In this document: one piece after another, positions 5,503-61,312 of the stretch
Layout: each line of letters starts with the position of its first letter
Position numbering within the stretch: position 1 is the stretch's first letter
Assembly (NCBI GenBank): GCA_964387675.1
Contig: CAYLWL010000004.1
Location: forward strand, 1-61,814
Direction of reading: 5' to 3'
Source: an uncultured Candidatus Saccharibacteria bacterium
GTDB taxonomy: Bacteria > Patescibacteriota > Minisyncoccia > UBA6257 > 2-01-FULL-56-20
DNA length: 61,814 bases
Notes under the pieces: generated by a model
What the model was told of the DNA's origin: nothing
Database searches by the model: none
Seen by the model: the letters and a program-made list of their open reading frames with translations, nothing else
Made by a program: the position numbers and the translations under genes

Positions 5503-5536
5503 AACATCCTTACAAACTCCAGTTTATAAGGATATT
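5503..5536. repeat. Palindrome family P1, copy 1 (AACATCCTTACAAAC-TCCA-GTTTATAAGGATATT)
   Basis: Matches copies at 21204, 59387 and 59729; overlaps the stop codon of the DUF192 gene. Confidence 0.9.
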
Positions 5537-6017
5537 ACTTTAGGAAAACCTCGTCGCCAGCCTTGATTCCGTTCTTCGCAACGAAACCGGCGTTCACTTC
5601 AAGCACGGAGTCGATAGCGTCGGGAGGGTAATATATTTTCAAACCCCAGACGTGCTTGCCCGGCTCGGGCACGGCATTCTCGGAAAATCCCGCGACCCTC
5701 CCGTCTCGGATCCAAATCATGTCAATGGGAAACTTCATATCTTTCATCCAAAATCCATAGTTGCCCTCTTTGTCGAAAATAAAAAACATCCCCTCCCGCT
5801 CTCCCAGGGAATCTCTGCCGGAGAGACCCCACATTTTCTCCGTCGCTCCCCGCGCGACTTCGATAGACAAGGTTTTTCCGCCGATTGAGAGTTCCGACTT
5901 GGGAAGAGATTTCGCCCCGCCGCGGAACACGAAAAAGGCGAAGGCAAAAATCAATGCCGCGGAAACAATCCCGATGAAAAGCAGAAAAATCAAAAATTCC
6001 ATCCTAAAAGAACCCAT
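5535..6017 (-). CDS. DUF192 family protein with N-terminal TM anchor
   Basis: GLSGR..L...GMFF.F, FWMKDMKFPIDMIWI, VLEVNAG pattern. Confidence 0.88.
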   Translation of the reverse strand: MGSFRMEFLIFLLFIGIVSAALIFAFAFFVFRGGAKSLPKSELSIGGKTLSIEVARGATEKMWGLSGRDSLGEREGMFFIFDKEGNYGFWMKDMKFPIDMIWIRDGRVAGFSENAVPEPGKHVWGLKIYYPPDAIDSVLEVNAGFVAKNGIKAGDEVFLK

Positions 6018-6040: not shown

Positions 6041-6090
6041 AAGATCGTTTCCGTTATAACATAATATTATGTTATAACGGAAACGATCTT
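6041..6090. repeat. Palindrome family P2, copy 1: perfect 50-bp palindrome
   Basis: AAGATCGTTTCCGTTATAACATAAT|ATTATGTTATAACGGAAACGATCTT with no mismatch and no loop; 36-bp core repeated at 48466. Confidence 0.95.
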
Positions 6091-6109: not shown

Positions 6110-6141
6110 AAAAAATCCCACACAGGCGCGCGCCTGTGTGG
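6110..6141 (-). terminator. Rho-independent terminator of the sigma54-activator gene
   Basis: Perfect CCACACAGGCGC/GCGCCTGTGTGG stem followed by GATTTTTT on the minus strand, 7 nt after the stop. Confidence 0.75.
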
Positions 6142-6147
6142 ACTTCA

Positions 6148-7410
6148 CTACGACTTTTTGAGACCCAATCTTTTGATGTCGTTCAGGAGGCTCTTATATG
6201 ATCTGCCCGCTCTTCGCGCCACCTGGCGCTTGTTCCACCGGCACTCCGCAAGAAGTTCGAGTAGATATTCTCTGGCCGCTTTGTCGGCTGCGGTCTGCAT
6301 AACTTCTTCGAGCGATCTCGTCGTATCAACGCCCGCCTCTTCCTCTTTCCGAACTGCGGTTCTCGTCCACTGCGCCACAAGGAACCTTCTTGATACGTCT
6401 TCCGCGGAAATCTCCGGCCCTACCGCGAAAATCGAGGCCGCCTCGATCACTTCGCGCAATTGACGGACATTTCCCGGCCAGCGGTACGAAAGAAGAACCT
6501 CCTCGGCTTCGGGAGAAAGAAAAAACGGTTTTCCTTTCTGCCTCGGCGTACAATGCTTGAGAAATTCCTTCGCCAGAAACAAGATGTCTGCCGGCCTCTC
6601 GCGAAGCGGCGGGACACAGATTTTCACGACACCAAGCCGCCAGAAGAGATCTTCGCGGAACTTCTTTTCTTCCACGAGACGGCAAAGATCCTGGTTGCTC
6701 GCCGCGATTACGCGAACATCCACGGTCTTGCTCGTCGGAGAGCCGACCACGGCGATCTCGCCGCTTTCGAGCACCCGGAGCAATCTTGTCTGCACACTCC
6801 AGCTCATATCGGCAATCTCGTCGAGGAAGAGGGTGCCTCCATCGGCCGCCGCGAATTTTCCGATTGTCTTTTTGTCGGAACCAGTAAAGGCGCCGCGCTC
6901 GTGTCCGAAAATCTCCGATTCGATGAGCGTCTCGGGGACCGCCGAGCAGTTGAATGCTATGAACGGGTTATGCCTGCGAGGGCTGTTCGCGTGAATAGTT
7001 TTCGCGACGATTTCTTTGCCCGAACCGCTTTCTCCGTCGATCACGACGGTGCAGTCGGCCGGAGAAACCAGAAGCAAAATCGGGGCGAGTTCTCGCCGCA
7101 AATCGTCTCCCACGCTCACTGCCCAATCGAGCCAGTTTGGTTCCGGCATCCGCTTTTCCCCTTCTCTTTCTCGCTTATCGCCTTCCGCACCCTGCCCCGT
7201 CGCAGGAGGAACGGTTTCGGTGGCATCCGCGCCTTCTTTTTGCGAAGCTCCCGGAGGGATTGTTTCGATTCCCTTGTCCCCTTCTTCTGTTCGGGGAAGA
7301 GGAGAAAACGGTTCGCCTAACGACCTCTGGAGATCAGCCAGGTCAGCTGCCGAGTTCACCGCAATAGCCATCTCTGCCTCACTTATCAAAATTGATTTGC
7401 TAGCAACCAT
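6148..7410 (-). CDS. Sigma54-dependent enhancer-binding protein (AAA+ and Fis-type HTH), no receiver domain
   Basis: GESGSGKE, ESEIFGHERGAFTGS, LFLDEI, FREDLFWRL, WPGNVRQL, C-terminal HTH. Start uncertain (7410, 7371 or 7149). The track's 7824 start overlaps infC and is rejected. Confidence 0.9.
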   Translation of the reverse strand: MVASKSILISEAEMAIAVNSAADLADLQRSLGEPFSPLPRTEEGDKGIETIPPGASQKEGADATETVPPATGQGAEGDKREREGEKRMPEPNWLDWAVSVGDDLRRELAPILLLVSPADCTVVIDGESGSGKEIVAKTIHANSPRRHNPFIAFNCSAVPETLIESEIFGHERGAFTGSDKKTIGKFAAADGGTLFLDEIADMSWSVQTRLLRVLESGEIAVVGSPTSKTVDVRVIAASNQDLCRLVEEKKFREDLFWRLGVVKICVPPLRERPADILFLAKEFLKHCTPRQKGKPFFLSPEAEEVLLSYRWPGNVRQLREVIEAASIFAVGPEISAEDVSRRFLVAQWTRTAVRKEEEAGVDTTRSLEEVMQTAADKAAREYLLELLAECRWNKRQVARRAGRSYKSLLNDIKRLGLKKS

Positions 7411-7497
7411 TATATGCCGCTGCCAGCGTAATGTCAATCTTTTTCCGGCTTTGACAATGAAAGTCGCGGAGTGTACACTGAATGCAATTATTAACCG

Positions 7498-7989
7498 GTG
7501 AAGATTAACACACAAATAACCGCTCTTGAACTGCGGGTCATCGATGAGCAAGGGAACAATCTCGGCGTTTTGAAGCGCGAGGAAGCCCTCGCCCTCGTGA
7601 AACCGGGGATCGACCTCATCGAGATCGTGCCGACGGCGAAACCCCCCGTCGCTCGGCTCATGAGTTTCGACAAGTACCGATACGAAAGAGCCAAGCAGGA
7701 AAAGAAGGAGCGGATGGCGCAGAAAAGCACTTCGCTCAAGCAGGTGCAAATCACGGCACGAGCCGCTACCAACGACCTGATGATCAAAGTCCGGCAATTG
7801 GAAAAATTTCTCGAAGAGGGTCATACGGTGGAAATCAATTTATTCCTCCGCGGCCGCGAGAAATATAACAAAGAATGGGCCCGGCAAAAGTTAGACGAAT
7901 TTTTAAAGATGATAACCGCGGAATATAAACGGCTCACCGAGCCGAGATTCGGCGGAAGAGGAATGACGATGCAAATTAGTAAAAAGTAA
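7498..7989 (+). CDS. infC: Translation initiation factor IF-3
   Basis: IN..I...ELRVID, DLIEI.PTAKPPVARLM, followed by rpmI-rplT. Confidence 0.95.
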   Translation: MKINTQITALELRVIDEQGNNLGVLKREEALALVKPGIDLIEIVPTAKPPVARLMSFDKYRYERAKQEKKERMAQKSTSLKQVQITARAATNDLMIKVRQLEKFLEEGHTVEINLFLRGREKYNKEWARQKLDEFLKMITAEYKRLTEPRFGGRGMTMQISKK

Positions 7990-9141: not shown

Positions 9142-10893
9142 TTATTTCAAAGATTTTAACATTTTTAACATCTCCTCTAATGGCCAAGCATTGACAACAT
9201 CTCTCCGCTTTGCCCAGCCGCGCCTTGCTTGAGCGACACCGTACTCGAGATACGCAAAATGAGTCGGCGAATGGGCGTCGGAGTCGATGGACATTTTCAC
9301 GCCGGATGCAACGCACTTTCTCACATATTCGTCTTTCAAATCGAGCCGGTCGGGATAGGCGTCAATCTCCATAACGGTGCCCGTCTTTTTTGCCGCCGAA
9401 ATCAATTCGTCCATGTTGACCTCATAGGCCTCGCGCTTATTGATAATCCGGCCGGTCGGATGAAACAGTATATCGACGTGCGGATTTTCCATCGCTTTCC
9501 TAATTCTCTTAGTTTGCGCTTCGCGGGGCAAATTGAAATACGAATGCACCGAAGCCCCCACGATATCGAGCTTCGACAAAATCCTGTCGGGCAAATCGAG
9601 CGAGCCGTCTTTCAAAATATCGCATTCGCTTCCTTTCAAAATTTTTATTTTGCCGGCGAATTTTCTGTTCAGCCGATCGATTTCCGCCATTTGTTTCAAA
9701 AGCCGTTTTTCGTCCAATCCGTGTGTCATAGCAAGCCGCTTGGTGTGGTCAGTGATCGCAATATAGGCGAGGCCATGTCTGATTGCGGCTCGTGCCATAT
9801 GTTCAATCGAATCGGATCCGTCGGTCCAGTTCGTCTGCACCTGGAGATCTCCCCTTAAATCACCATACGCTATAAGTTTGGGGAGTTTGTGGTTTTTAGC
9901 GGCTTCGATTTCTCCGGTATTCTCCCGCATTTCCGGCTCAACATAATCCAGCCCCAACGCTTTATAAATTTCTTCTTCGGTTTCTCCGGCAACTATTTGC
10001 TCTTTGCCCTTTGCTATTCGCCATAATCCGTACTCGTTCAATTTATATCCTTTTTTCATCGCTATCTGCCGCAAAGCGACGTTATGGCTTTTGGAGCCGG
10101 TAAAATAGCTCAAGGCCGCGCCGTACGATTCCGGAGCAACCACGCGCACATCGACATCAAACCCGGATTTCATTTTCACGGCGGACTTGGTGGCTCCGTG
10201 CGCCAACACGCGAACAACTCCGGGCATCTTGGTAAAACGATCTATAGCTTCCAAGGCCGCTCTTTTTTCCTTTACCGTAACCAGGATGTCGACGTCGCCG
10301 ATCGTTTCTTTCATCCTCCGCGTGGAGCCGGCGACGACCAGTTTATCAACCCCATGAATCCGCCGAAGCCGATCCGCGATGGCTCTGATCTCGGGCATCA
10401 CAAACCCCAACACGAACCGCCCTTCGGATTTTTTCATAAAGCCGATCCCTTTCAAAATATTTTCTTCGCTCTTCTTGCCGAAGCCCTCGAGCTTGCCGAT
10501 ACGCCCGGCGAGCGCCGCCTTCTCCAAATCCTTCAAGTCCTTAATCCTCAGCTTTTCGTAAAGTTTCTTGATGGACTTCGGCCCCAAACCCTCAATCCCG
10601 CGAAGCTCGGCAAGATTGACCGGGGTTTCCTTTTTCAGTTTCTCGTAGTATTTGAGGCGGCCGGTTTTTATAAGCTCTTCGATTTTTTCTGCAATGGAGA
10701 CACCGACACCGGGAATGTCTTCGACTGCTCGTATGCCTCCTTTACGGTAGATTTCTCCGGCTTCTTCTTCTAATCCCTCAATCACGCCGGCAACCTTTTC
10801 GTACGCCCGTGGCTTGAAGGGCACGTCTTGCATCTCAAGATACGCCGCAATTTCGTAGAGTATTTCGGCTATCTGTTTATTAGAAATCGGCAT
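9142..10893 (-). CDS. polX: DNA polymerase X / PHP 3'-5' exonuclease
   Basis: HhH motifs, GSTRR, GDVDIL, YFTGSK.HN, C-terminal PHP domain (ITDH, HPTGR, DSDAH). Confidence 0.95.
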   Translation of the reverse strand: MPISNKQIAEILYEIAAYLEMQDVPFKPRAYEKVAGVIEGLEEEAGEIYRKGGIRAVEDIPGVGVSIAEKIEELIKTGRLKYYEKLKKETPVNLAELRGIEGLGPKSIKKLYEKLRIKDLKDLEKAALAGRIGKLEGFGKKSEENILKGIGFMKKSEGRFVLGFVMPEIRAIADRLRRIHGVDKLVVAGSTRRMKETIGDVDILVTVKEKRAALEAIDRFTKMPGVVRVLAHGATKSAVKMKSGFDVDVRVVAPESYGAALSYFTGSKSHNVALRQIAMKKGYKLNEYGLWRIAKGKEQIVAGETEEEIYKALGLDYVEPEMRENTGEIEAAKNHKLPKLIAYGDLRGDLQVQTNWTDGSDSIEHMARAAIRHGLAYIAITDHTKRLAMTHGLDEKRLLKQMAEIDRLNRKFAGKIKILKGSECDILKDGSLDLPDRILSKLDIVGASVHSYFNLPREAQTKRIRKAMENPHVDILFHPTGRIINKREAYEVNMDELISAAKKTGTVMEIDAYPDRLDLKDEYVRKCVASGVKMSIDSDAHSPTHFAYLEYGVAQARRGWAKRRDVVNAWPLEEMLKMLKSLK

Positions 10894-11726: not shown

Positions 11727-14249
11727 TTATCCTTCGACAAACTCGACTTCCTCGCCCACCACCTTTAATGTTATGCTACTCCCTCTCGAAACCTTCTGTC
11801 TCAAGATTTCTTCGGCAAGCGGGGCCCGCAATTTCTCATCGATCACTCGCCGCAGGGGCCTTGCCCCGAACGCCGGTTCATAACCCCACTTGGCAAATTG
11901 TTTGATGACCGACTCGTCGAACTTGAGTTCGATACCCTGGTTTTTGGCGAGCGAAGCCACGTCCTTTAAGTTTAACACCACGATCTTTTCCAGATCGGCG
12001 GGTTCGAGGTCTTTGAAAACCACCACTTTCGTGAATCGGTTCAGCAATTCCGGCCTGAAAACGTCTATCAGTTTTTTCTTGAGGTATTCGGCGATGCCCT
12101 TCATCGACTCACCTTGGCTTAGGGCCTGGTTGATAATATCCGAATGGGCATTCGAAGTTGCGATAATAATCGAGTTTTCGAAACTGGCAACGCGCCCCAG
12201 GTTGTCGGTCAGCCGCCCGTCGTCGAAAACCTGCAAAAACAAATTCAAAATGTCCGGGTACGCTTTTTCAAACTCGTCCAAAAGAACCAAACTGTACGGC
12301 TTCTGCAGCATTGCGTCGGTGAGGGCCCCCGAAACCGTTCCGTCCGGAGAACCGATGAATCGATAAAAACTCTGCTTGTCCTGGTATTCCGTCATATCGA
12401 ACCGGATCATTTCCCGCTCCGAACCGAACTGTATCTTCGCGAGAATTTTCGCGAGCTCCGTCTTTCCCACGCCGGTCGGCCCGACAAACAAGAAACTCGC
12501 GATGGGGCCGCCGGAGCGCGTAAGGCCGCTTCGATATTCCCGCAAAGAATCCGAGACGACGCGCACGGCTTCCTCTTGGTCGATGAGCCGCTCGTGAATC
12601 AACGCTTCGAGATTCAGCAACTTTTGCGCCTCTTCTCCTCTCGCTTCGTGGATGGGAACGTGCACTTTCTGTTCGGCAACGCTCTCAACGATTGCCGGCC
12701 CCAGAAACTTTTCTTCCCGCCGCTTGGTTTCCGTCAAGGCGCTTTTCAAGAGCTCTTCGGCGCTCGACGGCAAGAATTTGTTCCTGAAGTACTTTTTGGC
12801 CAAAAATACGGCTTTCTTCACAGCCCCGAAGCTGATCGTCACTCCGAATTGATTTTCTAGGAGCAAACTTTCGTATATCAGCACCTTCTTGGCGTCAAGC
12901 TCGGAAATCTCCTGCACCCGTATCACTTCGAACGCTCCCGAAAAGTCGCTTCTCGGCTCTATCCACTGTTTGAACTCGCGCGGATACGTCGCCCCGATCA
13001 CGGGAAAACTGTTGCTCATGATAATGGGCATCAGGGCGTCCGCGGCGGACAGATACGCCGTTCCCGACGTGCGAACCAAATTATGAATATTCGGCATGTA
13101 AAGGATCACGTTGCCCGCCACCAAAATTTCCTCGACGATCGTCTTGAGGCGCGCGTTCAACTCTTCGGGCGGCGCCCCGGCAACCAAACTTTCGAGTTCC
13201 AGAGCGACGAGGCGCTTGTCAAAAAGCGGCGGCGGGACTTCGTCTTTGGATAATCGGAAAGCCAGATGCGCCACCATCGTCTCTTTGCCGATGCCCGCCT
13301 CGCCCACCAAAAGAGCATTGGGGCTTATCGGCCGAGCCAATGTGTTCATCAGCAGATCGAACTCTTCCGTATGGCCAACCAGAAATCCGACTTCGTTTTG
13401 CCTCGCGAGATCCGTGAGGTCTTCCGCGTACCTGTCGAGCGTCGGAGTAGGCCGGGCCGTCCACGCCCGGTTCATAATCCGATGCCTCACGTTCGTTTGC
13501 GAACCCGACACAAAACCGCCGAGCGCTCTCGGTAGCTTTTTCATGAAACCCTGGCGCTTTACGGAACTGAAAATCAAAGCGAGTTCCAAATCGCCGATTT
13601 CTATGGAGAACGTATTCAGAACCCTTTCGATGGCGGGATCGCCCGCGGCGGCTAATCCGGAAAAAAGATCGCCGAGCTCGATACACTGGTGCTTGGCCTT
13701 CACGGCTTCCGCGAATGATTTGAGAACCAGAAGTTCGACGCTTGCCATCCTTTCTTGTTTGGAGAACATCTTCGAGGCATCGTTCGGTTTCAACAACTCT
13801 TCGATCTTTTGTCTGAATTCTTCCGGGGACACGTCGAGCCGCTTCAGCCCTTCGCTTATCTGGCGAAACGCGAGAAGTCCGCGGGCTACCTCGAGAAAAA
13901 AGTTCTGCCGTGGAATAAAAACGCTCCGGTCGAACGCCCGTTCAATGACGGAAAAAGACCTCGGCTTCACATACGCCGCCGCGTTGATCTTGCCGAACAA
14001 GGGCATTTCGGAGATCTGGCGATCCGCTTCGCTCCAATGTCTCGCTCGCTGGATCAAAAAGAGAACCAAGAGAACTCCTGTGGCGCGAAGCCACTCTACA
14101 TCCGTCACAAGAAACGTCGCGGCCGCCACGATCGTGACAAGATATCCGATATAGGCGGAGATTCTCACCAAAAGCCGGCCGGGAACCGTCATCCGCAAAC
14201 GCGGCTCGTCGAAATAGAATTCGCGGTCAGAAGAGGTGGCTTGCGGCAT
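11727..14249 (-). CDS. ClpA/B-type AAA+ ATPase with N-terminal TM segments and degenerate first AAA domain
   Basis: D1 Walker A GEAGIGKET, Walker B replaced by LYMPNIH; D2 GPTGVGKT, LLDEFEK, FRPELLNR, GARPLRR. Confidence 0.9.
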   Translation of the reverse strand: MPQATSSDREFYFDEPRLRMTVPGRLLVRISAYIGYLVTIVAAATFLVTDVEWLRATGVLLVLFLIQRARHWSEADRQISEMPLFGKINAAAYVKPRSFSVIERAFDRSVFIPRQNFFLEVARGLLAFRQISEGLKRLDVSPEEFRQKIEELLKPNDASKMFSKQERMASVELLVLKSFAEAVKAKHQCIELGDLFSGLAAAGDPAIERVLNTFSIEIGDLELALIFSSVKRQGFMKKLPRALGGFVSGSQTNVRHRIMNRAWTARPTPTLDRYAEDLTDLARQNEVGFLVGHTEEFDLLMNTLARPISPNALLVGEAGIGKETMVAHLAFRLSKDEVPPPLFDKRLVALELESLVAGAPPEELNARLKTIVEEILVAGNVILYMPNIHNLVRTSGTAYLSAADALMPIIMSNSFPVIGATYPREFKQWIEPRSDFSGAFEVIRVQEISELDAKKVLIYESLLLENQFGVTISFGAVKKAVFLAKKYFRNKFLPSSAEELLKSALTETKRREEKFLGPAIVESVAEQKVHVPIHEARGEEAQKLLNLEALIHERLIDQEEAVRVVSDSLREYRSGLTRSGGPIASFLFVGPTGVGKTELAKILAKIQFGSEREMIRFDMTEYQDKQSFYRFIGSPDGTVSGALTDAMLQKPYSLVLLDEFEKAYPDILNLFLQVFDDGRLTDNLGRVASFENSIIIATSNAHSDIINQALSQGESMKGIAEYLKKKLIDVFRPELLNRFTKVVVFKDLEPADLEKIVVLNLKDVASLAKNQGIELKFDESVIKQFAKWGYEPAFGARPLRRVIDEKLRAPLAEEILRQKVSRGSSITLKVVGEEVEFVEG

Positions 14250-21074: not shown

Positions 21075-21085
21075 GATCTTTTGTG

Positions 21086-21157
21086 TGCGCTCGCGGGGAA
21101 TTGAACCTCGATCTCATCCTTCGGAGGGATGCATTCTATCCGTTGAACTACGAGCGC
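21086..21157 (-). tRNA. tRNA-Arg(CCG)
   Basis: GCGCTCG/CGAGCGC acceptor stem, CATCC-CT CCG AA-GGATG anticodon arm, GGTTCAATTCC T arm. Confidence 0.95.
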
Positions 21158-21203: not shown

Positions 21204-21237
21204 AACATCCTTACAAACTCCAGTTTGTAAGGATGTT
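21204..21237. repeat. Palindrome family P1, copy 2 (perfect 15-bp arms)
   Basis: AACATCCTTACAAAC-TCCA-GTTTGTAAGGATGTT between the permease stop and tRNA-Arg. Confidence 0.92.
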
Positions 21238-21249
21238 TTCGAGGTTGCT

Positions 21250-22371
21250 TCAAGTATTTATTTTTAAAATTGGTTCCACTACAAAATAGTAGATTTCATA
21301 AACCGCCCCGAGGATAAACACGAGCGCGGCGAGGTGCACCGCGAGACCCTGGAGGCGCGGCAATCGCAAGGCGCGGCGGGCGACGAAAATAATCAACAGA
21401 TATTCCAAGCTCGCGAAGAGCCCCCCGGCGAGCCCGATCACTTTCAAAAAGTTGTTCACGCCGGCAAAAACGAGGAGAAGCGGCAAAAAAATCACGGCGG
21501 GCACCACGAAACTTTTCGGCCAGCGCAGATCTTCCGTAAGGGCGTTTTTTATCTCAAGCATAATCAAGCCGTAGGACTTCCAAACGGCGACGGCGCCGAA
21601 AACGGCGAGGAGCAGTTTAATCCATAGAAAATCTCCCGCGAAGCTCGAGATCGTATCGGGCAAAACGCGGGGCGCAAGAGATAAAATCCCCAAGACGAAT
21701 ACAATATAAAGAATCGCCGCGATGATGGTGCCAAGCGGCAATGACACGTTCCACGAAGAACCGCCCCGCGTCTCTCGACGCATCCCATACAACGGCTCGA
21801 TCGCCGTCCATCCCGCCAAAGAAAAAAGCAAGGCGCCGAAAGGCAAAAACAAATCGTTAAAACGGGAAGCGGTCGGCGGCAATGTCCGCGGCAAACCGCC
21901 CAGTAAAAAAATAGATGCCATAAGAATCGCGGTGAGTATCGCCCCGATATTTTCCAGGAAGAGCGCTTTCTTTTCTTTGAAGAGAAGCGGCGCGGCGCAT
22001 ACGAACCAAAACACAAGCAATGCCGGCTGTTCGCTCCACGACGGCAACAACGCGACAATAAACCTGCTTCCCAAAATGAGGTAGACGACAAGAACCAAGA
22101 GGAGTCCGAGTACGATTGTGGCAAACCCAAGAACATACCCGATGCCGCCAAGATGCCTCTTCGCGAGTCCGAGCAATCGTTCGCGCTCGCCGACGGCATC
22201 GAGCATTTGCCAATATACCCTGTGCACGAAAATGACGATGACACTCAACACCGCAATATAGAGAACGCTTACCCAAAAACCCGCCGTCGAAAAAACATAC
22301 GGGAGGGCAAACACGCCCGCTCCGATCGTAGCGGCAACAACAACTCCCGCTTCGCGCAAAACCCTCATCAT
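21250..22371 (-). CDS. Amino acid permease (aromatic amino acid transporter-like)
   Basis: N-terminal TIGAGVFALPY, about 11 TM, FGALLFSLAG. Confidence 0.85.
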   Translation of the reverse strand: MMRVLREAGVVVAATIGAGVFALPYVFSTAGFWVSVLYIAVLSVIVIFVHRVYWQMLDAVGERERLLGLAKRHLGGIGYVLGFATIVLGLLLVLVVYLILGSRFIVALLPSWSEQPALLVFWFVCAAPLLFKEKKALFLENIGAILTAILMASIFLLGGLPRTLPPTASRFNDLFLPFGALLFSLAGWTAIEPLYGMRRETRGGSSWNVSLPLGTIIAAILYIVFVLGILSLAPRVLPDTISSFAGDFLWIKLLLAVFGAVAVWKSYGLIMLEIKNALTEDLRWPKSFVVPAVIFLPLLLVFAGVNNFLKVIGLAGGLFASLEYLLIIFVARRALRLPRLQGLAVHLAALVFILGAVYEIYYFVVEPILKINT

Positions 22372-45620: not shown

Positions 45621-45670
45621 AAAAATGTTCACATTATAAATGATTAGTCATTTATAATGTAAACATTTTT
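45621..45670. repeat. AT-rich hairpin P3 (23-bp arms, 1 mismatch)
   Basis: AAAAATGTTCACATTATAAATGA-TTAG-TCATTTATAATGTAAACATTTTT just after the comF stop. Confidence 0.85.
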
Positions 45671-48465: not shown

Positions 48466-48501
48466 TTTCCGTTATAACATAATATTATGTTATAACGGAA
48501 A
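48466..48501. repeat. Palindrome family P2, copy 2 (perfect 36 bp)
   Basis: TTTCCGTTATAACATAAT|ATTATGTTATAACGGAAA, identical to 6048-6083. Confidence 0.95.
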
Positions 48502-57666: not shown

Positions 57667-59373
57667 TCAAATCTGCTCGAGAACCCTGATGCCAAGAAGT
57701 CCAAGCCCGGTTTTGAGAACTCGGGACGCCGCTTCTACTAAAGAAAGCAGAGCGGCGCGCCGCTCATCACCCTCCTCTTTTAAGATCGGCGTCGTTTCGT
57801 AAAGCTGATTAGAAAGGACTGCCAACTTGTAAAGAAAGTTCGCTATGTTGCTGGTCGAAAGATGCTCGCCGCTTCTTTTTACTTCGTCCGGGAACTCCAA
57901 AAGCTTGCGGATTATTCTCATCTCGATGTCTTGATTCAAGCCCGCATAGCTCTTCGCTCTTTGCTCTTTGCCATTTGCCTTTCGCAAGATGCTTCGCATT
58001 CTTGCGAAAGTGTACTGCAAGTACGGCGCGCTGTCGCCCGTTAGGTCAAGCATTTTCTCCCAATCGAACACGATATCGGAGGTGCGGTTTTCTTTGAGAT
58101 CGTTGTATTTCAAAGCGCCGACTCCAACCGCCTCGGCGATTTTCTCTCTTTCCGCCTCAGGAGTATCTGTTGCTTTTTTGTCAACAACCTCGCGGGCAAG
58201 CCGAATCACTTTTCCTAAAACCTCCTCCAAAAGAATCGCCCGGCCTTCGCGCGTGGCCAGTTTTTTTGAACCCTCGCCCAAGACCAAGCCATACTTGACG
58301 TGCTTGAGTTCCGCTCCTTTTAATCCAAGTATCTCCGCTATCGCAAAAAGTTGTTCAAAATGCAAAGATTGCTCGTTTCCCACAACATACAAAATCTTCT
58401 CGGGCTTGTATTTCGAGAGGCGGTATTCCAGATTGGCGATGTCGCGAGTGAGATACAAGCTCGCGCCGTCCGATTTTCGTATCAACGCCGGCGGCAAGCT
58501 GATTCCCCGCTTATCAAGCGCCACGATGACGGACCCTTCGCTCGTTTCGGCAACGCCTTGTTCGAGCAAACGCTCCACAAGCGGCTTCAAATCTTTTTCG
58601 TAGAAGCTTTCGCCTATCCAGGAATCGAATTTCACCCCCAGCGCCGCGTACATCTTCTCGAATTCTTTGAGCGACTCCTTTTTGAACCAGTGCCACAATG
58701 CCGCGTTTTCCTCGTCTCCTTCTTCCAATTTCTTGAATTCTTCTTGTCCGCGCTTTTCAAGCGCCGGGTCGCTTCTCATTTCGTCGTGAAATCTTACGTA
58801 CAGTTTTTGCAGTTCATCGATCGGATTTTGCTCAACTTTTTTTTTATCCCCCCACAACTTATAGGCGGCTATGAGCTTTCCGAACTGCGTCCCCCAGTCG
58901 CCCAGATAATTCCAGCGGATTACGTCGTAGCCCAAAAACTCGGAGATGTTCGCCAAAGCATCGCCAATGATCGTGGTGCGCAAATGGCCCACGTGCATTT
59001 TTTTGGCAATGTTCGGCTGGGAGTATTCGACGATAATAATTTTTTTCTTCCCGATATCGCTCCGTCCATAATCCTCGATGTTGTCGCGGATCGCGCCGAA
59101 CGCTTTTTGCAAAGCTTCGTTCGAAATCCAAAAATTTATAAACCCTGGCGCCGCGACTTCGATCTTCTCAAAAAAATCCTTTGGGGCCGCTTTCTCCAGT
59201 TTTTTTTTCAACTCCTCGGCCAGCGCCATGGGCGTTTTGCCCTCCTGCTTCGCGAGCCGCAAGGCAATGTTCGTGGCATAGTGGCCTTGGTTTTCGTGCT
59301 CGGGGACGAAAACTTCCGCACCACGCAGGCCAACCCCTTCTAATTCTAATATTTTTTCTATCGTTTTTTTCAT
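57667..59373 (-). CDS. argS: Arginyl-tRNA synthetase
   Basis: GHYATN.A, GFINF, EYSQPNIAK.MHVGHLR, GDWGTQFG, GDSAPYLQY. Confidence 0.97.
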   Translation of the reverse strand: MKKTIEKILELEGVGLRGAEVFVPEHENQGHYATNIALRLAKQEGKTPMALAEELKKKLEKAAPKDFFEKIEVAAPGFINFWISNEALQKAFGAIRDNIEDYGRSDIGKKKIIIVEYSQPNIAKKMHVGHLRTTIIGDALANISEFLGYDVIRWNYLGDWGTQFGKLIAAYKLWGDKKKVEQNPIDELQKLYVRFHDEMRSDPALEKRGQEEFKKLEEGDEENAALWHWFKKESLKEFEKMYAALGVKFDSWIGESFYEKDLKPLVERLLEQGVAETSEGSVIVALDKRGISLPPALIRKSDGASLYLTRDIANLEYRLSKYKPEKILYVVGNEQSLHFEQLFAIAEILGLKGAELKHVKYGLVLGEGSKKLATREGRAILLEEVLGKVIRLAREVVDKKATDTPEAEREKIAEAVGVGALKYNDLKENRTSDIVFDWEKMLDLTGDSAPYLQYTFARMRSILRKANGKEQRAKSYAGLNQDIEMRIIRKLLEFPDEVKRSGEHLSTSNIANFLYKLAVLSNQLYETTPILKEEGDERRAALLSLVEAASRVLKTGLGLLGIRVLEQI

Positions 59374-59383
59374 AACCTACCGC

Positions 59384-59423
59384 AACAACATCCTTACAAA
59401 CTCCAGTTTGTAAGGATGTTGTT
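59384..59423. repeat. Palindrome family P1, copy 3 (perfect 18-bp arms)
   Basis: AACAACATCCTTACAAAC-TCCA-GTTTGTAAGGATGTTGTT between the HTH stop and the argS start. Confidence 0.95.
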
Positions 59424-59429
59424 ATGCGC

Positions 59430-59705
59430 TTATATACGTTGAAAGGATTCCAGAAAACGGACGAAGACTTTCCCGTATGGAGAAAGAGAGTGTTCGACAA
59501 ACTTGCCGCGATATTTCTTGTTGATTAATCCTGCTTGGTGAAGCCGCCGCGCGTGCTCGCCTATCGTTTTTTCGTTCGCCCCAAGCTCCCCAATGATGTC
59601 ATCAAGGGTTATCCCTTCTCGCTCGGAAACAAGAAGCAGTATCGCAATTCGATAATGATTCGCCATTCCCTTGAGATGCCGCTCCATCTGTTTTGTTGTC
59701 TTCAT
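59430..59705 (-). CDS. Small ArsR-like winged helix-turn-helix protein
   Basis: KGMANHYRIAIL, ITLDDI...L....TIGEHARRL..AGLI.K...G..V.H.L; ATG 59705 lies 7 nt after TATAAT. Confidence 0.85.
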   Translation of the reverse strand: MKTTKQMERHLKGMANHYRIAILLLVSEREGITLDDIIGELGANEKTIGEHARRLHQAGLINKKYRGKFVEHSLSPYGKVFVRFLESFQRI

Positions 59706-59712
59706 TTTTTTA

Positions 59713-59753
59713 ATTATATACAACACAGAACATCCTTACAAACTCCAGTTTGT
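59713..59753 (-). promoter_or_regulatory. HTH gene promoter overlapping P1 copy 4 (59729-59753)
   Basis: TTGTAA (59736-59741, inside the palindrome) -17nt- TATAAT (59713-59718); the first 25 nt of P1 are exact and the distal arm is degenerate. Confidence 0.75.
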
Positions 59754-59809
59754 GGGTGTATTATATAAAACGGGTGGCAAAGAAAAAACTGTGTGTATAA
59801 TCTCATGAT

Positions 59810-59844
59810 AAAAAGAGAGCTCCGCCAAATATGGCGAAGCTTTT
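59810..59844 (-). terminator. Terminator-like hairpin after the DUF4159 gene
   Basis: AGCT.CGCCA/TGGCG.AGCT stem with T-runs on both strands. Confidence 0.55.
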
Positions 59845-59888
59845 AAGAACCGCTCTTCTTGGCTCGTGGAAAAGTCACGTTCATTTTC

Positions 59889-60746
59889 TCAATGTGTAAG
59901 GGCGTAGAGAAAGATGTTGATGCCCAGCTCGTATCCAATCGGCGAAAATTTGAAAAAATATTCTTTTGTGGTATCGAAACCCTCCCTCTCCCACGCGTCT
60001 CCAATGTCGGTGTTGTGAGTCATAACGGCCATGAGCCGTCCCCTCTTGTCCTCAATCCCCCTAAAATGGACATCCTTGCTGTCCTCGCCCCGCTCGGATG
60101 TTTGCCCTTTATTCCTGTACCAAAAACCGATGTTCGGTATCTGCGGCACGCGCGGTATTGAAAATAACTGATTCATGATCGGGTGCGTCGCGGGGATGTC
60201 AATCATCGAATACGATTCGGAGGGCAACACTCGCCGAATCTGTTGCTCCCAATGATTCCAACTCTGCGACCCCCAAAAGTCGTCCGCCCACAGAAATCCG
60301 CCTTTCTCGAAGTAAAGACGGAGATTGGCAACTTCGCTCTCGGTAAGTCCGATTGTTCCCGGGTCGGAAAGAAAAAGCACCGGGCAGTGAAAGAGCAGTG
60401 GGCTGTCCAAGCGCACGACCACGTAAACAGGGTCACGGTTAACGTCCCGCCGTATCCGCGCCTTCGTCAACTCGGAAAATCGCACCAAAAAATTGTAATC
60501 CGCTCCGGGATAGTCGGTGTACCAACCCCAAACTCCCTTCTCTTCGCGGTTCTGATTGTAATACCCCCTACAAAAAACAAGGGGACCCTCAAAATCAGAC
60601 AAGGTTGCCCAACGGGGAGGAACCATTATACTGCCATCGACTGGATTAACATCCGTCGGACCGACCCAAATCTGCCCCCATACCGGCTCAAACCCAAACA
60701 GGAGCAGCGAGAGCAAAGCGCATAGTACCGGCTTCCGCATATTCAT
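59889..60746 (-). CDS. DUF4159 domain secreted protein
   Basis: W.TDYP.AD.N, P.LFLSDPG, Y.EKGGFL.ADDFWG, HNTDIGDAWE; ATG 60746 after AAGGAG; signal peptide. Confidence 0.85.
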   Translation of the reverse strand: MNMRKPVLCALLSLLLFGFEPVWGQIWVGPTDVNPVDGSIMVPPRWATLSDFEGPLVFCRGYYNQNREEKGVWGWYTDYPGADYNFLVRFSELTKARIRRDVNRDPVYVVVRLDSPLLFHCPVLFLSDPGTIGLTESEVANLRLYFEKGGFLWADDFWGSQSWNHWEQQIRRVLPSESYSMIDIPATHPIMNQLFSIPRVPQIPNIGFWYRNKGQTSERGEDSKDVHFRGIEDKRGRLMAVMTHNTDIGDAWEREGFDTTKEYFFKFSPIGYELGINIFLYALTH

Positions 60747-60847
60747 CGCGAACTCCTTATGAACTGTGAAGATTCTTCTTGAAGGATAGCTCCTCTGCGG
60801 CCAAGATGGCAAATCCCCGCGGCAACAACCGCTATAATGATTACTAT

Positions 60848-61312
60848 ATGACAAAAACGCCCTCGGAAAATCGTCGGGCTTGCCTCGCCGAGAATAGGCG
60901 GGCTAGATTCGATTATGAAATTCGCGAGTCGATCGAGGCCGGAATCGAGCTTTTTGGTTTTGAAGTGAAAAGCGCCAAGCTCGGCAGAATGGGAATCGCG
61001 GGGAGCTATGTAATCATCCGCGGCAACGAAGGATGGCTTTTGAATTCCCGAATTCCGCCGTACCAAGAGAAGAATACGCCGAAAGATTATAACCCAAGCC
61101 GGACACGCCGGCTTCTTTTGCATAAGCATGAAATATCGAAGCTCGTGGGCCTGCTGAAAGAAAAATCTCTCTCGATTGTTCCTCTCCGGGCGTATCTCAA
61201 AAACGGTTTTATCAAAATAGAACTCGGCATCGGAAAATCGCGCAAGGCCGGCGACAAAAGAGAACTCTTAAAAAAACGGGCGGCGCGAAGAGAAATGCGG
61301 ATGGGCGGTTGA
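60848..61312 (+). CDS. smpB: SsrA-binding protein
   Basis: NRRARFDYEI, EAGIEL.G.EVKS, R.RRLLLHK.EI, GK..GDKRE. Confidence 0.95.
   Translation: MTKTPSENRRACLAENRRARFDYEIRESIEAGIELFGFEVKSAKLGRMGIAGSYVIIRGNEGWLLNSRIPPYQEKNTPKDYNPSRTRRLLLHKHEISKLVGLLKEKSLSIVPLRAYLKNGFIKIELGIGKSRKAGDKRELLKKRAARREMRMGG

Follow-up and report, generated by a model that had tools for sequence, protein, structure and literature searches.

A palindrome over the promoter and at the stop codon of a small ArsR-like gene suggests an undescribed form of self-regulation in Patescibacteria

Organization of the HTH locus

The window analyzed here, i.e. the whole 61,814 bp stretch of contig CAYLWL010000004.1 from an uncultured Candidatus Saccharibacteria bacterium, contains a small leftwards-transcribed gene for a predicted winged helix-turn-helix (HTH) protein, lying upstream of argS and flanked on both sides by copies of a 34 bp palindromic site (Table 1). 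Translation probably starts at the ATG at coordinate 59705, since a GTG farther upstream overlaps the −10 box, and it ends with a TAA at 59430–59432. The downstream copy of the site can be read either as 18 bp arms with a TCCA loop or as 19 nt arms separated by 2 nt, and it is positioned 6 nt from the HTH stop codon and 10 nt from the argS ATG. In the upstream copy the promoter-proximal arm and the centre are intact and the distal arm is degenerate (ACACCC-ACAAAC); identity between the copies is confined to 25 nt (59729–59753; an arm with the loop, plus 6 nt of the opposite arm), and the far arm reads GGGTGT where the downstream copy has AAGGATGTT. We take the upstream copy to be a genuine site, as its score falls within the 31–56 bits spanned by the 150 homologous sites from which the matrix was made, and its hybrid-arm form is the common one upstream of homologues.

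The −35 hexamer lies inside the promoter-proximal arm of the upstream site, and the promoter as a whole (TTGTAA-17-TATAAT-7-ATG) matches 10 of 12 consensus positions in the promoter scan, a geometry that implies a predicted leaderless or nearly leaderless mRNA. The scan of 59200–59900 gave no further match on the minus strand, and there is no room for a promoter of argS itself, so argS is presumably transcribed through the downstream site. A preliminary description of this sequence had reported a 91-residue ArsR-like gene, a perfect palindrome 6 nt past its stop codon and a promoter with the above spacings, all of which agree with the open reading frame (ORF) list, the Pfam match and the minus-strand promoter scan. 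It had also placed a second perfect palindrome 23 nt before the ATG; the position is correct but the palindrome is not perfect, the identity being limited to the 25 nt noted above.

Table 1. Coordinates of the HTH gene, the palindromic sites and associated features in the window
Feature	Coordinates	Strand	Basis or remarks
ArsR-like winged-helix gene, 91 residues	59430–59705	−	ORF list, Pfam, homologues, alignment
Downstream copy of the site, perfect palindrome	59384–59423 (34 nt core 59387–59420)	−	Sequence, shuffle test
Upstream (promoter) copy of the 34 bp site	59729–59762	−	Sequence; matrix score 39.9 bits
−35 hexamer TTGTAA	59736–59741	−	Inside promoter-proximal arm of upstream site; promoter scan
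−10 hexamer TATAAT	59713–59718	−	7 nt before ATG; promoter scan
argS (arginyl-tRNA synthetase)	57667–59373	−	ORF, ArgRS homologues
Orphan copy, perfect	21204–21237	−	34-mer search
Orphan copy, 2 mismatches	5503–5536	−	34-mer search
Intrinsic-terminator-like hairpin, GC-rich stem and T run	59818–59841	−	After the DUF4159 gene; terminator scan

The HTH protein matches Pfam HTH_5 (PF01022) over residues 19–63 with 26.8 bits (gathering cut-off 22), and precomputed PF01022 assignments are present in most of its homologues. A profile of the family alignment gives weak but consistent matches to the solved structures of CadC (1u2w, E = 2e-4), HlyU (4k2e and 3jth) and ArsR (6j05). The NCBIfam metalloregulator model NF033788 is not reached (34.7 bits against a cut-off of 55), and the 91 residues include neither the alpha3N cysteine pair nor the alpha5 DxHx10HxxE metal-sensing motif; there are no cysteines at all, and the C-terminal helix SPYGKVFVRFLESFQRI lacks the Asp/His/Glu pattern. 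His10, His17, His51 and His72 are invariant in the family and lie outside any known metal site, and the recognition-helix region ANEKTIGEHTRRLYQAGL is nearly invariant in the alignment of the main family. An AlphaFold2 model is of low confidence (mean predicted local distance difference test score 63.6). By these profile comparisons we regard the protein as a member of the ArsR superfamily that is not a recognizable metalloregulator.

More than 2000 protein clusters contain homologues. Identity to the window protein is ~80% for each of the best 120, which range from 91 to 107 residues, with a single one of 142, and the main-family protein is present in at least 250 species-level genomes. Hosts include Lipton-, Sung-, Uhr-, Kaiser-, Nomura-, Giovannoni-, Harrison-, Doudna-, Moran- and Levybacteria, among others.

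Conservation of the palindromes in homologous loci

The window locus was compared with 80 loci from 80 different Patescibacteria assemblies (81 loci in all), and sites were located with a 34 nt matrix for which nothing in 415 kb of shuffled sequence scores as high as 5 bits. An upstream site is present in 80 of the loci, a downstream site in 78 and both in 77; the exceptions correspond to a run of Ns, a contig end, a site split by a 35 nt insertion, and locus L048, which has no upstream site. Of the 78 loci with a downstream site, 62 have it starting between −2 and +6 nt relative to the stop codon's end, and in 20 of these the TAA stop itself forms part of the AACAT arm. Synteny is absent, 47 of 71 downstream genes being singletons, and the HTH proteins have a star-like pattern of identity (79.6% within named lineages vs 79.3% between them). 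Recurrent neighbors elsewhere include TspO, mnmA, a membrane winged-HTH protein, an MGMT-like protein, a NUDIX protein, and a 247-residue protein without a Pfam match that appears SWIM-like by eye only.

Of 82 upstream sites, 59 have a −10 box behind them (matching TATAAT at five or more of six positions), most often at a distance of 3 nt, and in 53 of these 59 an ATG lies 5–8 nt beyond the box, such that the mRNA of the family is read as leaderless. Throughout the family the −35 box and the spacer fall inside the upstream palindrome, which as a predicted promoter geometry is the classical one for an autorepressor. We consider the bracketing of the gene to be a family trait rather than a local oddity. 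The autoregulated operator–HTH–operator module envisaged in the preliminary description is supported both by the 77 of 81 bracketed loci and by seven of seven divergent paralogues (see below), and its remark that the layout differs from standard ArsR architecture stands.

Several loci show local departures. In L047 a tandem repeat, (ACGTATA)n, lies between the HTH stop and the downstream palindrome (~10270–10310), this being one of the few displaced sites. In L079 (~10280–10350) a small GC-rich repeat (e.g. CTTCGCCCTTCCGAAGCCTTGCGCGAAGGAGGG) is inserted in the centre of the downstream palindrome; a similar repeat adjoins the palindrome copy at L032 12261 (~12300–12340), and a stretch that resembles it by eye (L045 ~2460–2530) provides an in-frame 24-residue insert, SSHKATEGQGHPSSSWWTTEGHGKL, in some TspO genes. 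This GC-rich repeat may be a further element prone to insertion. Directly upstream of the HTH module, several unrelated genomes have a small gene whose sequence resembles GIY-YIG and whose C-terminus is conserved (...NIEITAHAKENK) (L045 1320–1664, and the upstream flanks of L027, L052, L053, L064 and L076).

Divergent subfamilies have palindromes of their own

A search of 1.84 billion cluster representatives revealed a wider family of ~90-residue relatives at 35–60% identity, and the collected loci themselves include seven divergent paralogues with 32–65% identity to the window protein. All seven are bracketed, each by palindromes of its own. Subfamily B (L010, L130, L134 and L150; 55–65% identity) has the recognition helix CNFKTISEHTRRLVQAGL and the palindrome ACATTC[CT]NACATTCT..AGAATGTNGGAATGT (in short form ACATTCCAACATTCT..AGAATGTTGGAATGT); subfamily C (L042 and L044; 32–34% identity) has the helix LSFKSTSRHLGLLSAADIV and TTCTCT[TA]A[TG]TCGC[AT]CGAAT[AT]AGAGAA (TTCTCTTATTCGCACGAATAAGAGAA); and subfamily D (L029; 33% identity) has the helix INYKTVAEHIRRLAIAGLV and CTTAAGTTCT[TC][GA]AGAACA (CTTAAGTTCTTGAGAACA). 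The co-variation of flanking palindrome and recognition helix that the preliminary description had offered as a check is therefore observed between subfamilies, in all seven paralogues.

The two copies lie 297–350 bp apart in the paralogues, and each gene has a −10 box of the leaderless type. An operator-like palindrome abutting or overlapping the stop codon is common to all four subfamilies, whatever gene follows. In subfamily B the centre of the palindrome contains the stop codon in three members, L130, L134 and L150 (TFQHS* is encoded by ACATTCCAACATTCTTGA in L150), and in L010 the downstream site begins ~20 nt after the stop; in subfamily C the stop is in the left arm, and in subfamily D the site lies within the last codons with the stop after it. 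L010 carries genes of the main subfamily (A) and of subfamily B only 1.6 kb apart, each with its own palindromes, and the B palindrome corresponds to a low-scoring type of orphan found in seven other loci. Because the palindrome varies with the protein and the layout remains constant, we regard these comparisons as the strongest evidence that the protein would bind the palindrome and that the stop-codon copy is likely to be functional.

Anatomy of the 34 bp site

The consensus of the site is AACATCCTTACAAACT[TG]GAG[AT][AT]TGTAAGGATGTT. Positions C3, A4, C7, A10, A12, A14, C15 and T16 are essentially invariant, as are their mirror positions with the exception of that of A14, and altogether 12–13 positions are invariant in more than 150 sites, including the central CT..AG. 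As only 2 nt separate the halves of the CT..AG, this centre is unable to pair as a hairpin, and positions 13–22 and 14–21 are mostly A:A; both features fit sequence-specific recognition rather than a stem. Two arm types are found, CATCCTTACA and CATACCAACA, and sites with hybrid arms make up 24 of 65 upstream sites, 12 of 58 downstream sites and 4 of 39 orphans. A comparison of single protein columns to arm type gave nothing convincing within the main family (35 columns; lowest p = 0.013), and the type of palindrome centre merely follows clades.

Orphan and in-frame copies

Two additional copies of the site are present in the window at a distance from the HTH gene (Table 1). The perfect orphan, 12 nt past the stop of an amino-acid transporter gene (21250–22371, minus strand), precedes tRNA-Arg(CCG) (21085–21157) by 46 nt; the other overlaps the stop codon of a DUF192 gene (5535–6017, minus strand), 73 nt upstream of a gene of the adenosine deaminase family. 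With up to three mismatches the 34-mer occurs at three places in the window (5503, 21204 and 59387) and at none in 100 shuffles, which excludes a chance origin of the repeats. All four copies share a single orientation, and as the GC skew is negative across the window, the minus strand, which is that of these genes and of the sense sites, is the leading strand. No target-site duplications were seen by eye around the two orphans (5503 and 21204).

The 81 HTH-centred loci (1.15 Mb) contain 53 further sites, enriched within ~2.5 kb of the gene, 43 of them in the orientation of the gene. In an unbiased sample of 120 metagenome contigs (725 kb) chosen by DNA pattern alone there are 67 HTH-flanking sites and 122 orphans, corresponding to a handful of orphans per genome. 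Intergenic orphans favor convergent over divergent regions (23 vs 6, against a background of 134 convergent and 105 divergent; p = 0.002), and in tandem regions 34 of 51 are nearer to a stop (median 22 nt) than to a start (median 76 nt), these counts being approximate as the genes were called crudely as greedy longest ORFs. Among 46 orphans, 17 are antisense to the gene that ends beside them.

Some copies lie in frame within genes, where in the sense direction they encode xH[PT][YN][IK]LE[NY]V[RG]M[LS]. Their hosts include TspO (nine genomes), MnmA (two genomes, at different positions), PGA_cap (two genomes) and others. The copy in TspO reads as a 12-codon insertion relative to shorter orthologues and is 94% identical across the nine genomes, compared to 61–65% for the flanking codons; at third codon positions the values are 94% in the site and 50% in the flanks, although the comparison is ungapped and thus somewhat pessimistic for the flanks. 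That the copy is maintained at 94% while the surrounding gene has diverged argues for a function rather than debris. In many loci the gene immediately after the HTH gene is TspO, and the sites are usually arrayed as an upstream site, 335 bp, a downstream site, 258–293 bp, and the TspO-internal site.

Arrays of four to six palindromes punctuate consecutive genes of unrelated function around the HTH gene in L046 (6800–10311), L032 (7999–11382), L030 (7700–10314) and L079 (7883–9975); from reading of the translations only, the genes include RarA-like ATPase, MazG-like, PRiA4_ORF3-like, FAD-dependent and TPR proteins. In L060 (10278–10630) TspO lacks its first ~70 codons and the HTH downstream site is fused to the site that is internal to TspO in relatives, which points to recombination between two palindrome copies. 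Stubs of the HTH gene, consisting of a site, a −10 box and the first 6–9 codons (MGKIKTAKQ or MAKIKT) followed by unrelated sequence, occur at L060 8440–8520 and L064 573–650, 1.5–2.6 kb upstream of the intact gene, and have the appearance of rearrangement scars.

The downstream copy and a model for autoregulation

Two conventional roles for the downstream copy were considered and rejected. It is not an intrinsic terminator, as no T-tail follows the palindrome and the terminator scan, which identifies a canonical terminator 400 bp away, does not pick it up; the organism evidently uses ordinary terminators too, and this hairpin marks the upstream boundary of the HTH module. Neither is it the promoter or operator of the next gene, since a −10 box is found at promoter distance in only 7 of 77 downstream sites and the downstream genes are mostly unrelated. 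A co-directional next gene starts within 20 nt of the downstream site in 20 of 57 loci (argS here, at 10 nt), so transcription must cross the site.

We propose that this minimal ArsR-like winged-helix protein is an autorepressor that recognizes the ~34 bp palindrome and has an operator at the promoter of its gene as well as a stop-codon operator that probably serves as a roadblock to RNA polymerase; on the comparative data we judge this reading to be probable, with appreciable room for doubt. Repressor bound to the upstream copy, over the −35 box and spacer, would shut off initiation and give negative autoregulation. The stop-codon copy would belong to the HTH unit rather than act for the gene that follows, and its likeliest role is as a barrier to elongating polymerase that limits read-through into the downstream gene (argS in the window). 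The leading edge of RNA polymerase is ~15–20 nt ahead of the active site, so repressor at the downstream site should stall the enzyme before the stop codon is transcribed. Polymerase halted at the edge of the site would leave truncated non-stop transcripts, and their clearance by transfer-messenger RNA (tmRNA) along with SmpB could provide a second layer of autoregulation after initiation. Roadblock-truncated mRNAs are described as tmRNA substrates, for LacI and for CcpA at catabolite-responsive elements (cre), in a review (PMC3985003). The additional genomic copies would be sites for the same protein with the same action at 3′ ends, between convergent genes, and in frame as in TspO.

What the comparisons themselves show is that the layout is conserved, that it co-varies with the protein subfamily, that the upstream site overlaps the promoter and that the sites are under selection; binding, the roadblock and the non-stop step are inferred. 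Several observations weigh against the proposed reading. All of the functional statements made here come from comparative sequence analysis, and the protein has no recognizable sensing site. An efficient polymerase block would starve essential downstream genes such as argS. The sites have an orientation bias despite their near symmetry, with the sense direction in 67 of 78 downstream sites. The arms co-vary beyond what is seen with shuffled arms (downstream z = 7.0, orphans z = 8.4; 4.23 or 4.69 of six variable pairs are Watson-Crick per site, vs 3.55 or 3.69 with shuffled arms), and sites of the same genome are more alike than sites of different genomes (28.45 vs 26.36 of 34 positions, z = 11.3). 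This within-genome likeness occurs even though the recognition helix hardly varies, contrary to the prediction of a pure binding-site model, and together with the arm co-variation it suggests either that copying homogenizes the sites or that a hairpin imposes a further constraint. Read as sense-strand RNA, the downstream copy has a folding energy of −31.9 kcal/mol (z = −7.9), and a hairpin in RNA or in single-stranded DNA may also be of importance. The roughly constant spacing of 297–350 bp is equally suited to a loop.

In such a looping arrangement, dimers at the two sites would associate to form a ~335 bp loop round the gene for cooperative, low-noise autorepression, the downstream copy acting as an auxiliary operator like lacO2 or galOI; a roadblock could coexist with it. 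The centre-to-centre distance has a mode of 335 bp (~32 helical turns), with exactly 335 in 27 of 77 loci and 334–338 in 47 of 77, subfamilies with unrelated palindromes retain the 297–350 bp separation, and the regular array leading into TspO resembles a primary operator with an intragenic auxiliary one. However, the modal distances of 53 nt from upstream centre to gene and 282 nt from gene to downstream centre are conserved separately, and there is no compensation between them (r = 0.04), the variance of the total (194.6) being close to what the two variances add up to (186.8). No 10.5 bp phasing is seen in the 51 loci that deviate from the modal spacing, the subfamily distances correspond to non-integral numbers of turns (29.2–33.3), and there is no sign of tetramers for the 91-residue protein, the AlphaFold2 model being poor. 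The earlier suggestion that the module is able to loop is unsupported, given the lack of compensation and phasing, and we think looping rather unlikely. An RNA element, with the downstream and orphan copies forming 3′ stem-loops in mRNA and only the promoter copy acting as a protein operator, could protect 3′ ends, attenuate transcription, or stall terminating ribosomes near the stop in the manner of repetitive extragenic palindromes (REPs). The strong hairpin and arm co-variation noted above are compatible with this, as are the folds of the two window orphans (−23.2 and −18.7 kcal/mol), the greater symmetry of downstream and orphan sites relative to upstream sites, an excess of T:G over C:A mispairs in the sense orientation, and a REP-like preference for 3′ ends and convergent regions. 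But the CT..AG and several arm positions are invariant in sequence and not simply in pairing, with A:A at 13–22 and 14–21, 12 of 58 downstream sites have hybrid arms, and the mean number of Watson-Crick pairs downstream (11.9 of 15) is hardly above that of the promoter copies (11.1). There is no U-tract, the 17 of 46 orphans noted above are antisense to the adjacent gene end, and the downstream palindrome changes with subfamily and always equals the promoter copy, which a generic hairpin need not do. We consider an RNA element improbable.

Selfish or mobile DNA was also weighed, either as a mobilizable palindrome–gene–palindrome cassette or as repeats akin to REPs, miniature inverted-repeat transposable elements (MITEs) or Rickettsia palindromic elements (RPEs), which would propagate through copying and recombination and which 3′ ends and protein loops would tolerate. 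Consistent with mobility are the lack of conserved synteny, the homogenization of copies within a genome, the star-like identities, the 12-codon insertions, the L060 deletion of the TspO 5′ end lying exactly between two palindrome copies, and the HTH-gene 5′ stubs at L060 8440 and L064 573. The relative L207, with a 75% identical ArgRS, has smpB adjoining argS and neither the DUF4159 nor the HTH gene; its contig carries an identical palindrome elsewhere, 1 nt past a stop in a convergent region. In contrast, there is a single HTH gene per assembly in 80 assemblies, the copy number is no more than a handful per genome in the unbiased sample (122 orphans to 67 flanking sites), and no transposase or integrase is present among annotated neighbors. 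Phage and plasmid collections contain no homologues, and the site is found on one IMG/VR contig only, a viral-labelled contig that is the same as one of the metagenome matches. The intragenic TspO copy is kept at 94% identity, and four subfamilies with unrelated palindromes share the layout. The minimal mobilizable cassette of the preliminary description thus finds little support in the single copies and the lack of phage or plasmid relatives, notwithstanding the variable context and the scars, and we regard this as very unlikely. We rank promoter autorepression with a roadblock above looping, with which it is compatible, and these above an RNA hairpin and mobile or selfish DNA, in that order.

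A broader version of the autorepressor model can be put forward tentatively, as a possibility we would not lean on. It envisages a family-wide ‘bookend operator’ design in which polymerase is stopped at the gene's own stop codon and the non-stop transcripts are passed to tmRNA-SmpB, and in which portable copies provide protein-dependent punctuation, as 3′-end roadblocks and as in-frame sites controlling single operon genes, in genomes poor in promoters and terminators, the copies being spread and homogenized by recombination between sites.

Comparison to known regulators and repeats

Autorepressors of the ArsR/SmtB group (SmtB, CadC, ArsR and HlyU) similarly are small winged-helix HTH_5 proteins with an inverted repeat over their own promoter, implying negative autoregulation. 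They differ in having metal sites (alpha3N Cys, alpha5 DxHx10HxxE), of which the window protein has none, and in an operator of 12-2-12 rather than 15-4-15 organization; a second identical operator at the stop, with 3′-end and intragenic copies, is a feature of the system described here and not of ArsR/SmtB.

The lac system also combines a primary operator with auxiliary ones hundreds of base pairs away (O2 in lacZ, and O3 at the lacI end), and the repressor gene itself carries one of them at its 3′ end; O3 overlaps the lacI 3′ end and roadblocks lacI transcription. LacI is a tetramer of the LacI/GalR family and unrelated to the HTH protein, and the lac layout is a by-product of the position of lacI beside lacZYA, whereas the stop-codon operator here is conserved in four subfamilies with any downstream gene. 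As cited in the above review, trans-translation acts on LacI in Escherichia coli (Abo et al. 2000 as cited in PMC3985003), and in Bacillus subtilis the roadblocks of CcpA at cre yield truncated mRNAs that become targets of tmRNA (Ujiie et al. 2009 as cited in PMC3985003). The cre sites are palindromic repressor sites within or at the ends of genes, and as such resemble the in-frame copies in TspO, mnmA and PGA_cap. CcpA differs in being a global regulator of the LacI family with many sites, none of them conserved at its own stop codon.

The REPs and bacterial interspersed mosaic elements (BIMEs) of enterobacteria share with these sites a location past stops and between convergent genes, with few between divergent ones, as is the case for the orphans, as well as within-genome homogeneity and hairpin potential. 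Their copy number is in the hundreds, in contrast to a handful per genome here (four copies in the 62 kb window), and the tens to hundreds per genome expected of REPs are not seen. They also differ in that here the invariant positions extend into the ‘loop’, one copy is the putative promoter operator of a dedicated HTH gene, and the palindrome tracks the subfamily. No REP-associated tyrosine transposase (RAYT; Y1) was noted among the Pfam-annotated neighbors, no systematic search having been made. RPEs are likewise in-frame palindromic insertions that add a peptide segment, as the TspO insertion does, but are 100–150 bp in length, compared to 34 bp, few copies and a link to a cognate DNA-binding protein here, and the strong DNA-level selection on the TspO copy is unlike RPEs. 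Integron attC sites are imperfect, mostly co-oriented palindromes at the 3′ ends of consecutive genes, similar within a genome and arrayed beside one gene, much like the arrays in L046, L032, L030 and L079. They are much longer, and here the genes between sites have promoters and mixed orientations and the site doubles as a predicted operator. No Phage_integrase is present among the called genes of L001–L006 and L207–L210, and it is the HTH gene that adjoins the arrays.

There is nothing unusual in autoregulation by way of a palindrome at the promoter. In the literature searched there is no description of the main-family protein, of its palindrome, or of an operator layout with one site at the promoter and one at the stop codon; the conserved stop-codon operator, its recurrence in four subfamilies, and the reuse of this operator at gene 3′ ends and in frame within genes appear to be undescribed. 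The combination of a palindrome over the promoter and at the stop, with different palindromes in paralogues, suggests a form of self-regulation that has not been described previously. Gene regulation is almost unknown in the largely uncultivated Patescibacteria (Candidate Phyla Radiation), and here a candidate regulator–operator pair is legible directly from the sequence, with a precise motif and four orthogonal protein–palindrome pairs. If a roadblock does operate at the stop-codon operator, it would be a general and compact means of autoregulation and of gene insulation inside an operon, and the first case in which a promoter and stop-codon operator layout is itself the conserved design, as opposed to a chance result of gene order. 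At ~90 residues and ~34 bp, the orthogonal pairs are small and could serve as regulatory parts, and the in-frame copy in TspO offers a clear instance of selection at the DNA level within coding sequence.

Other genes and repeats in the window

By its ArgRS the window falls near Kaiserbacteria (83% identity). The ORF at 60779–61312 we take to be SmpB-like from reading its translation, a label with no family search behind it. The presence of copies before argS and tRNA-Arg(CCG) raised the idea of an arginine regulon, for which we found no support, as both the site and the HTH gene are missing beside argS in the relative L207; the arginine theme is probably a coincidence.

A different perfect palindrome of 36 bp (TTTCCGTTATAACATAAT/ATTATGTTATAACGGAAA) is present twice in the window, at 6049–6084 and 48466–48501, and is probably a candidate operator of another regulator. 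One of its copies is just upstream of the DUF192 start and follows a GC-rich hairpin (6118–6141); the minus-strand ORF before that hairpin (6148–7824) has the look of a sigma-54-type activator, which is our assumption with no family search behind the label. In addition, an inverted repeat with 23 nt arms (45621–45670; AAAAATGTTCACATTATAAATGA and TCATTTATAATGTAAACATTTTT, 96% complementary) lies ~350 bp upstream of tRNA-Leu(CAG).

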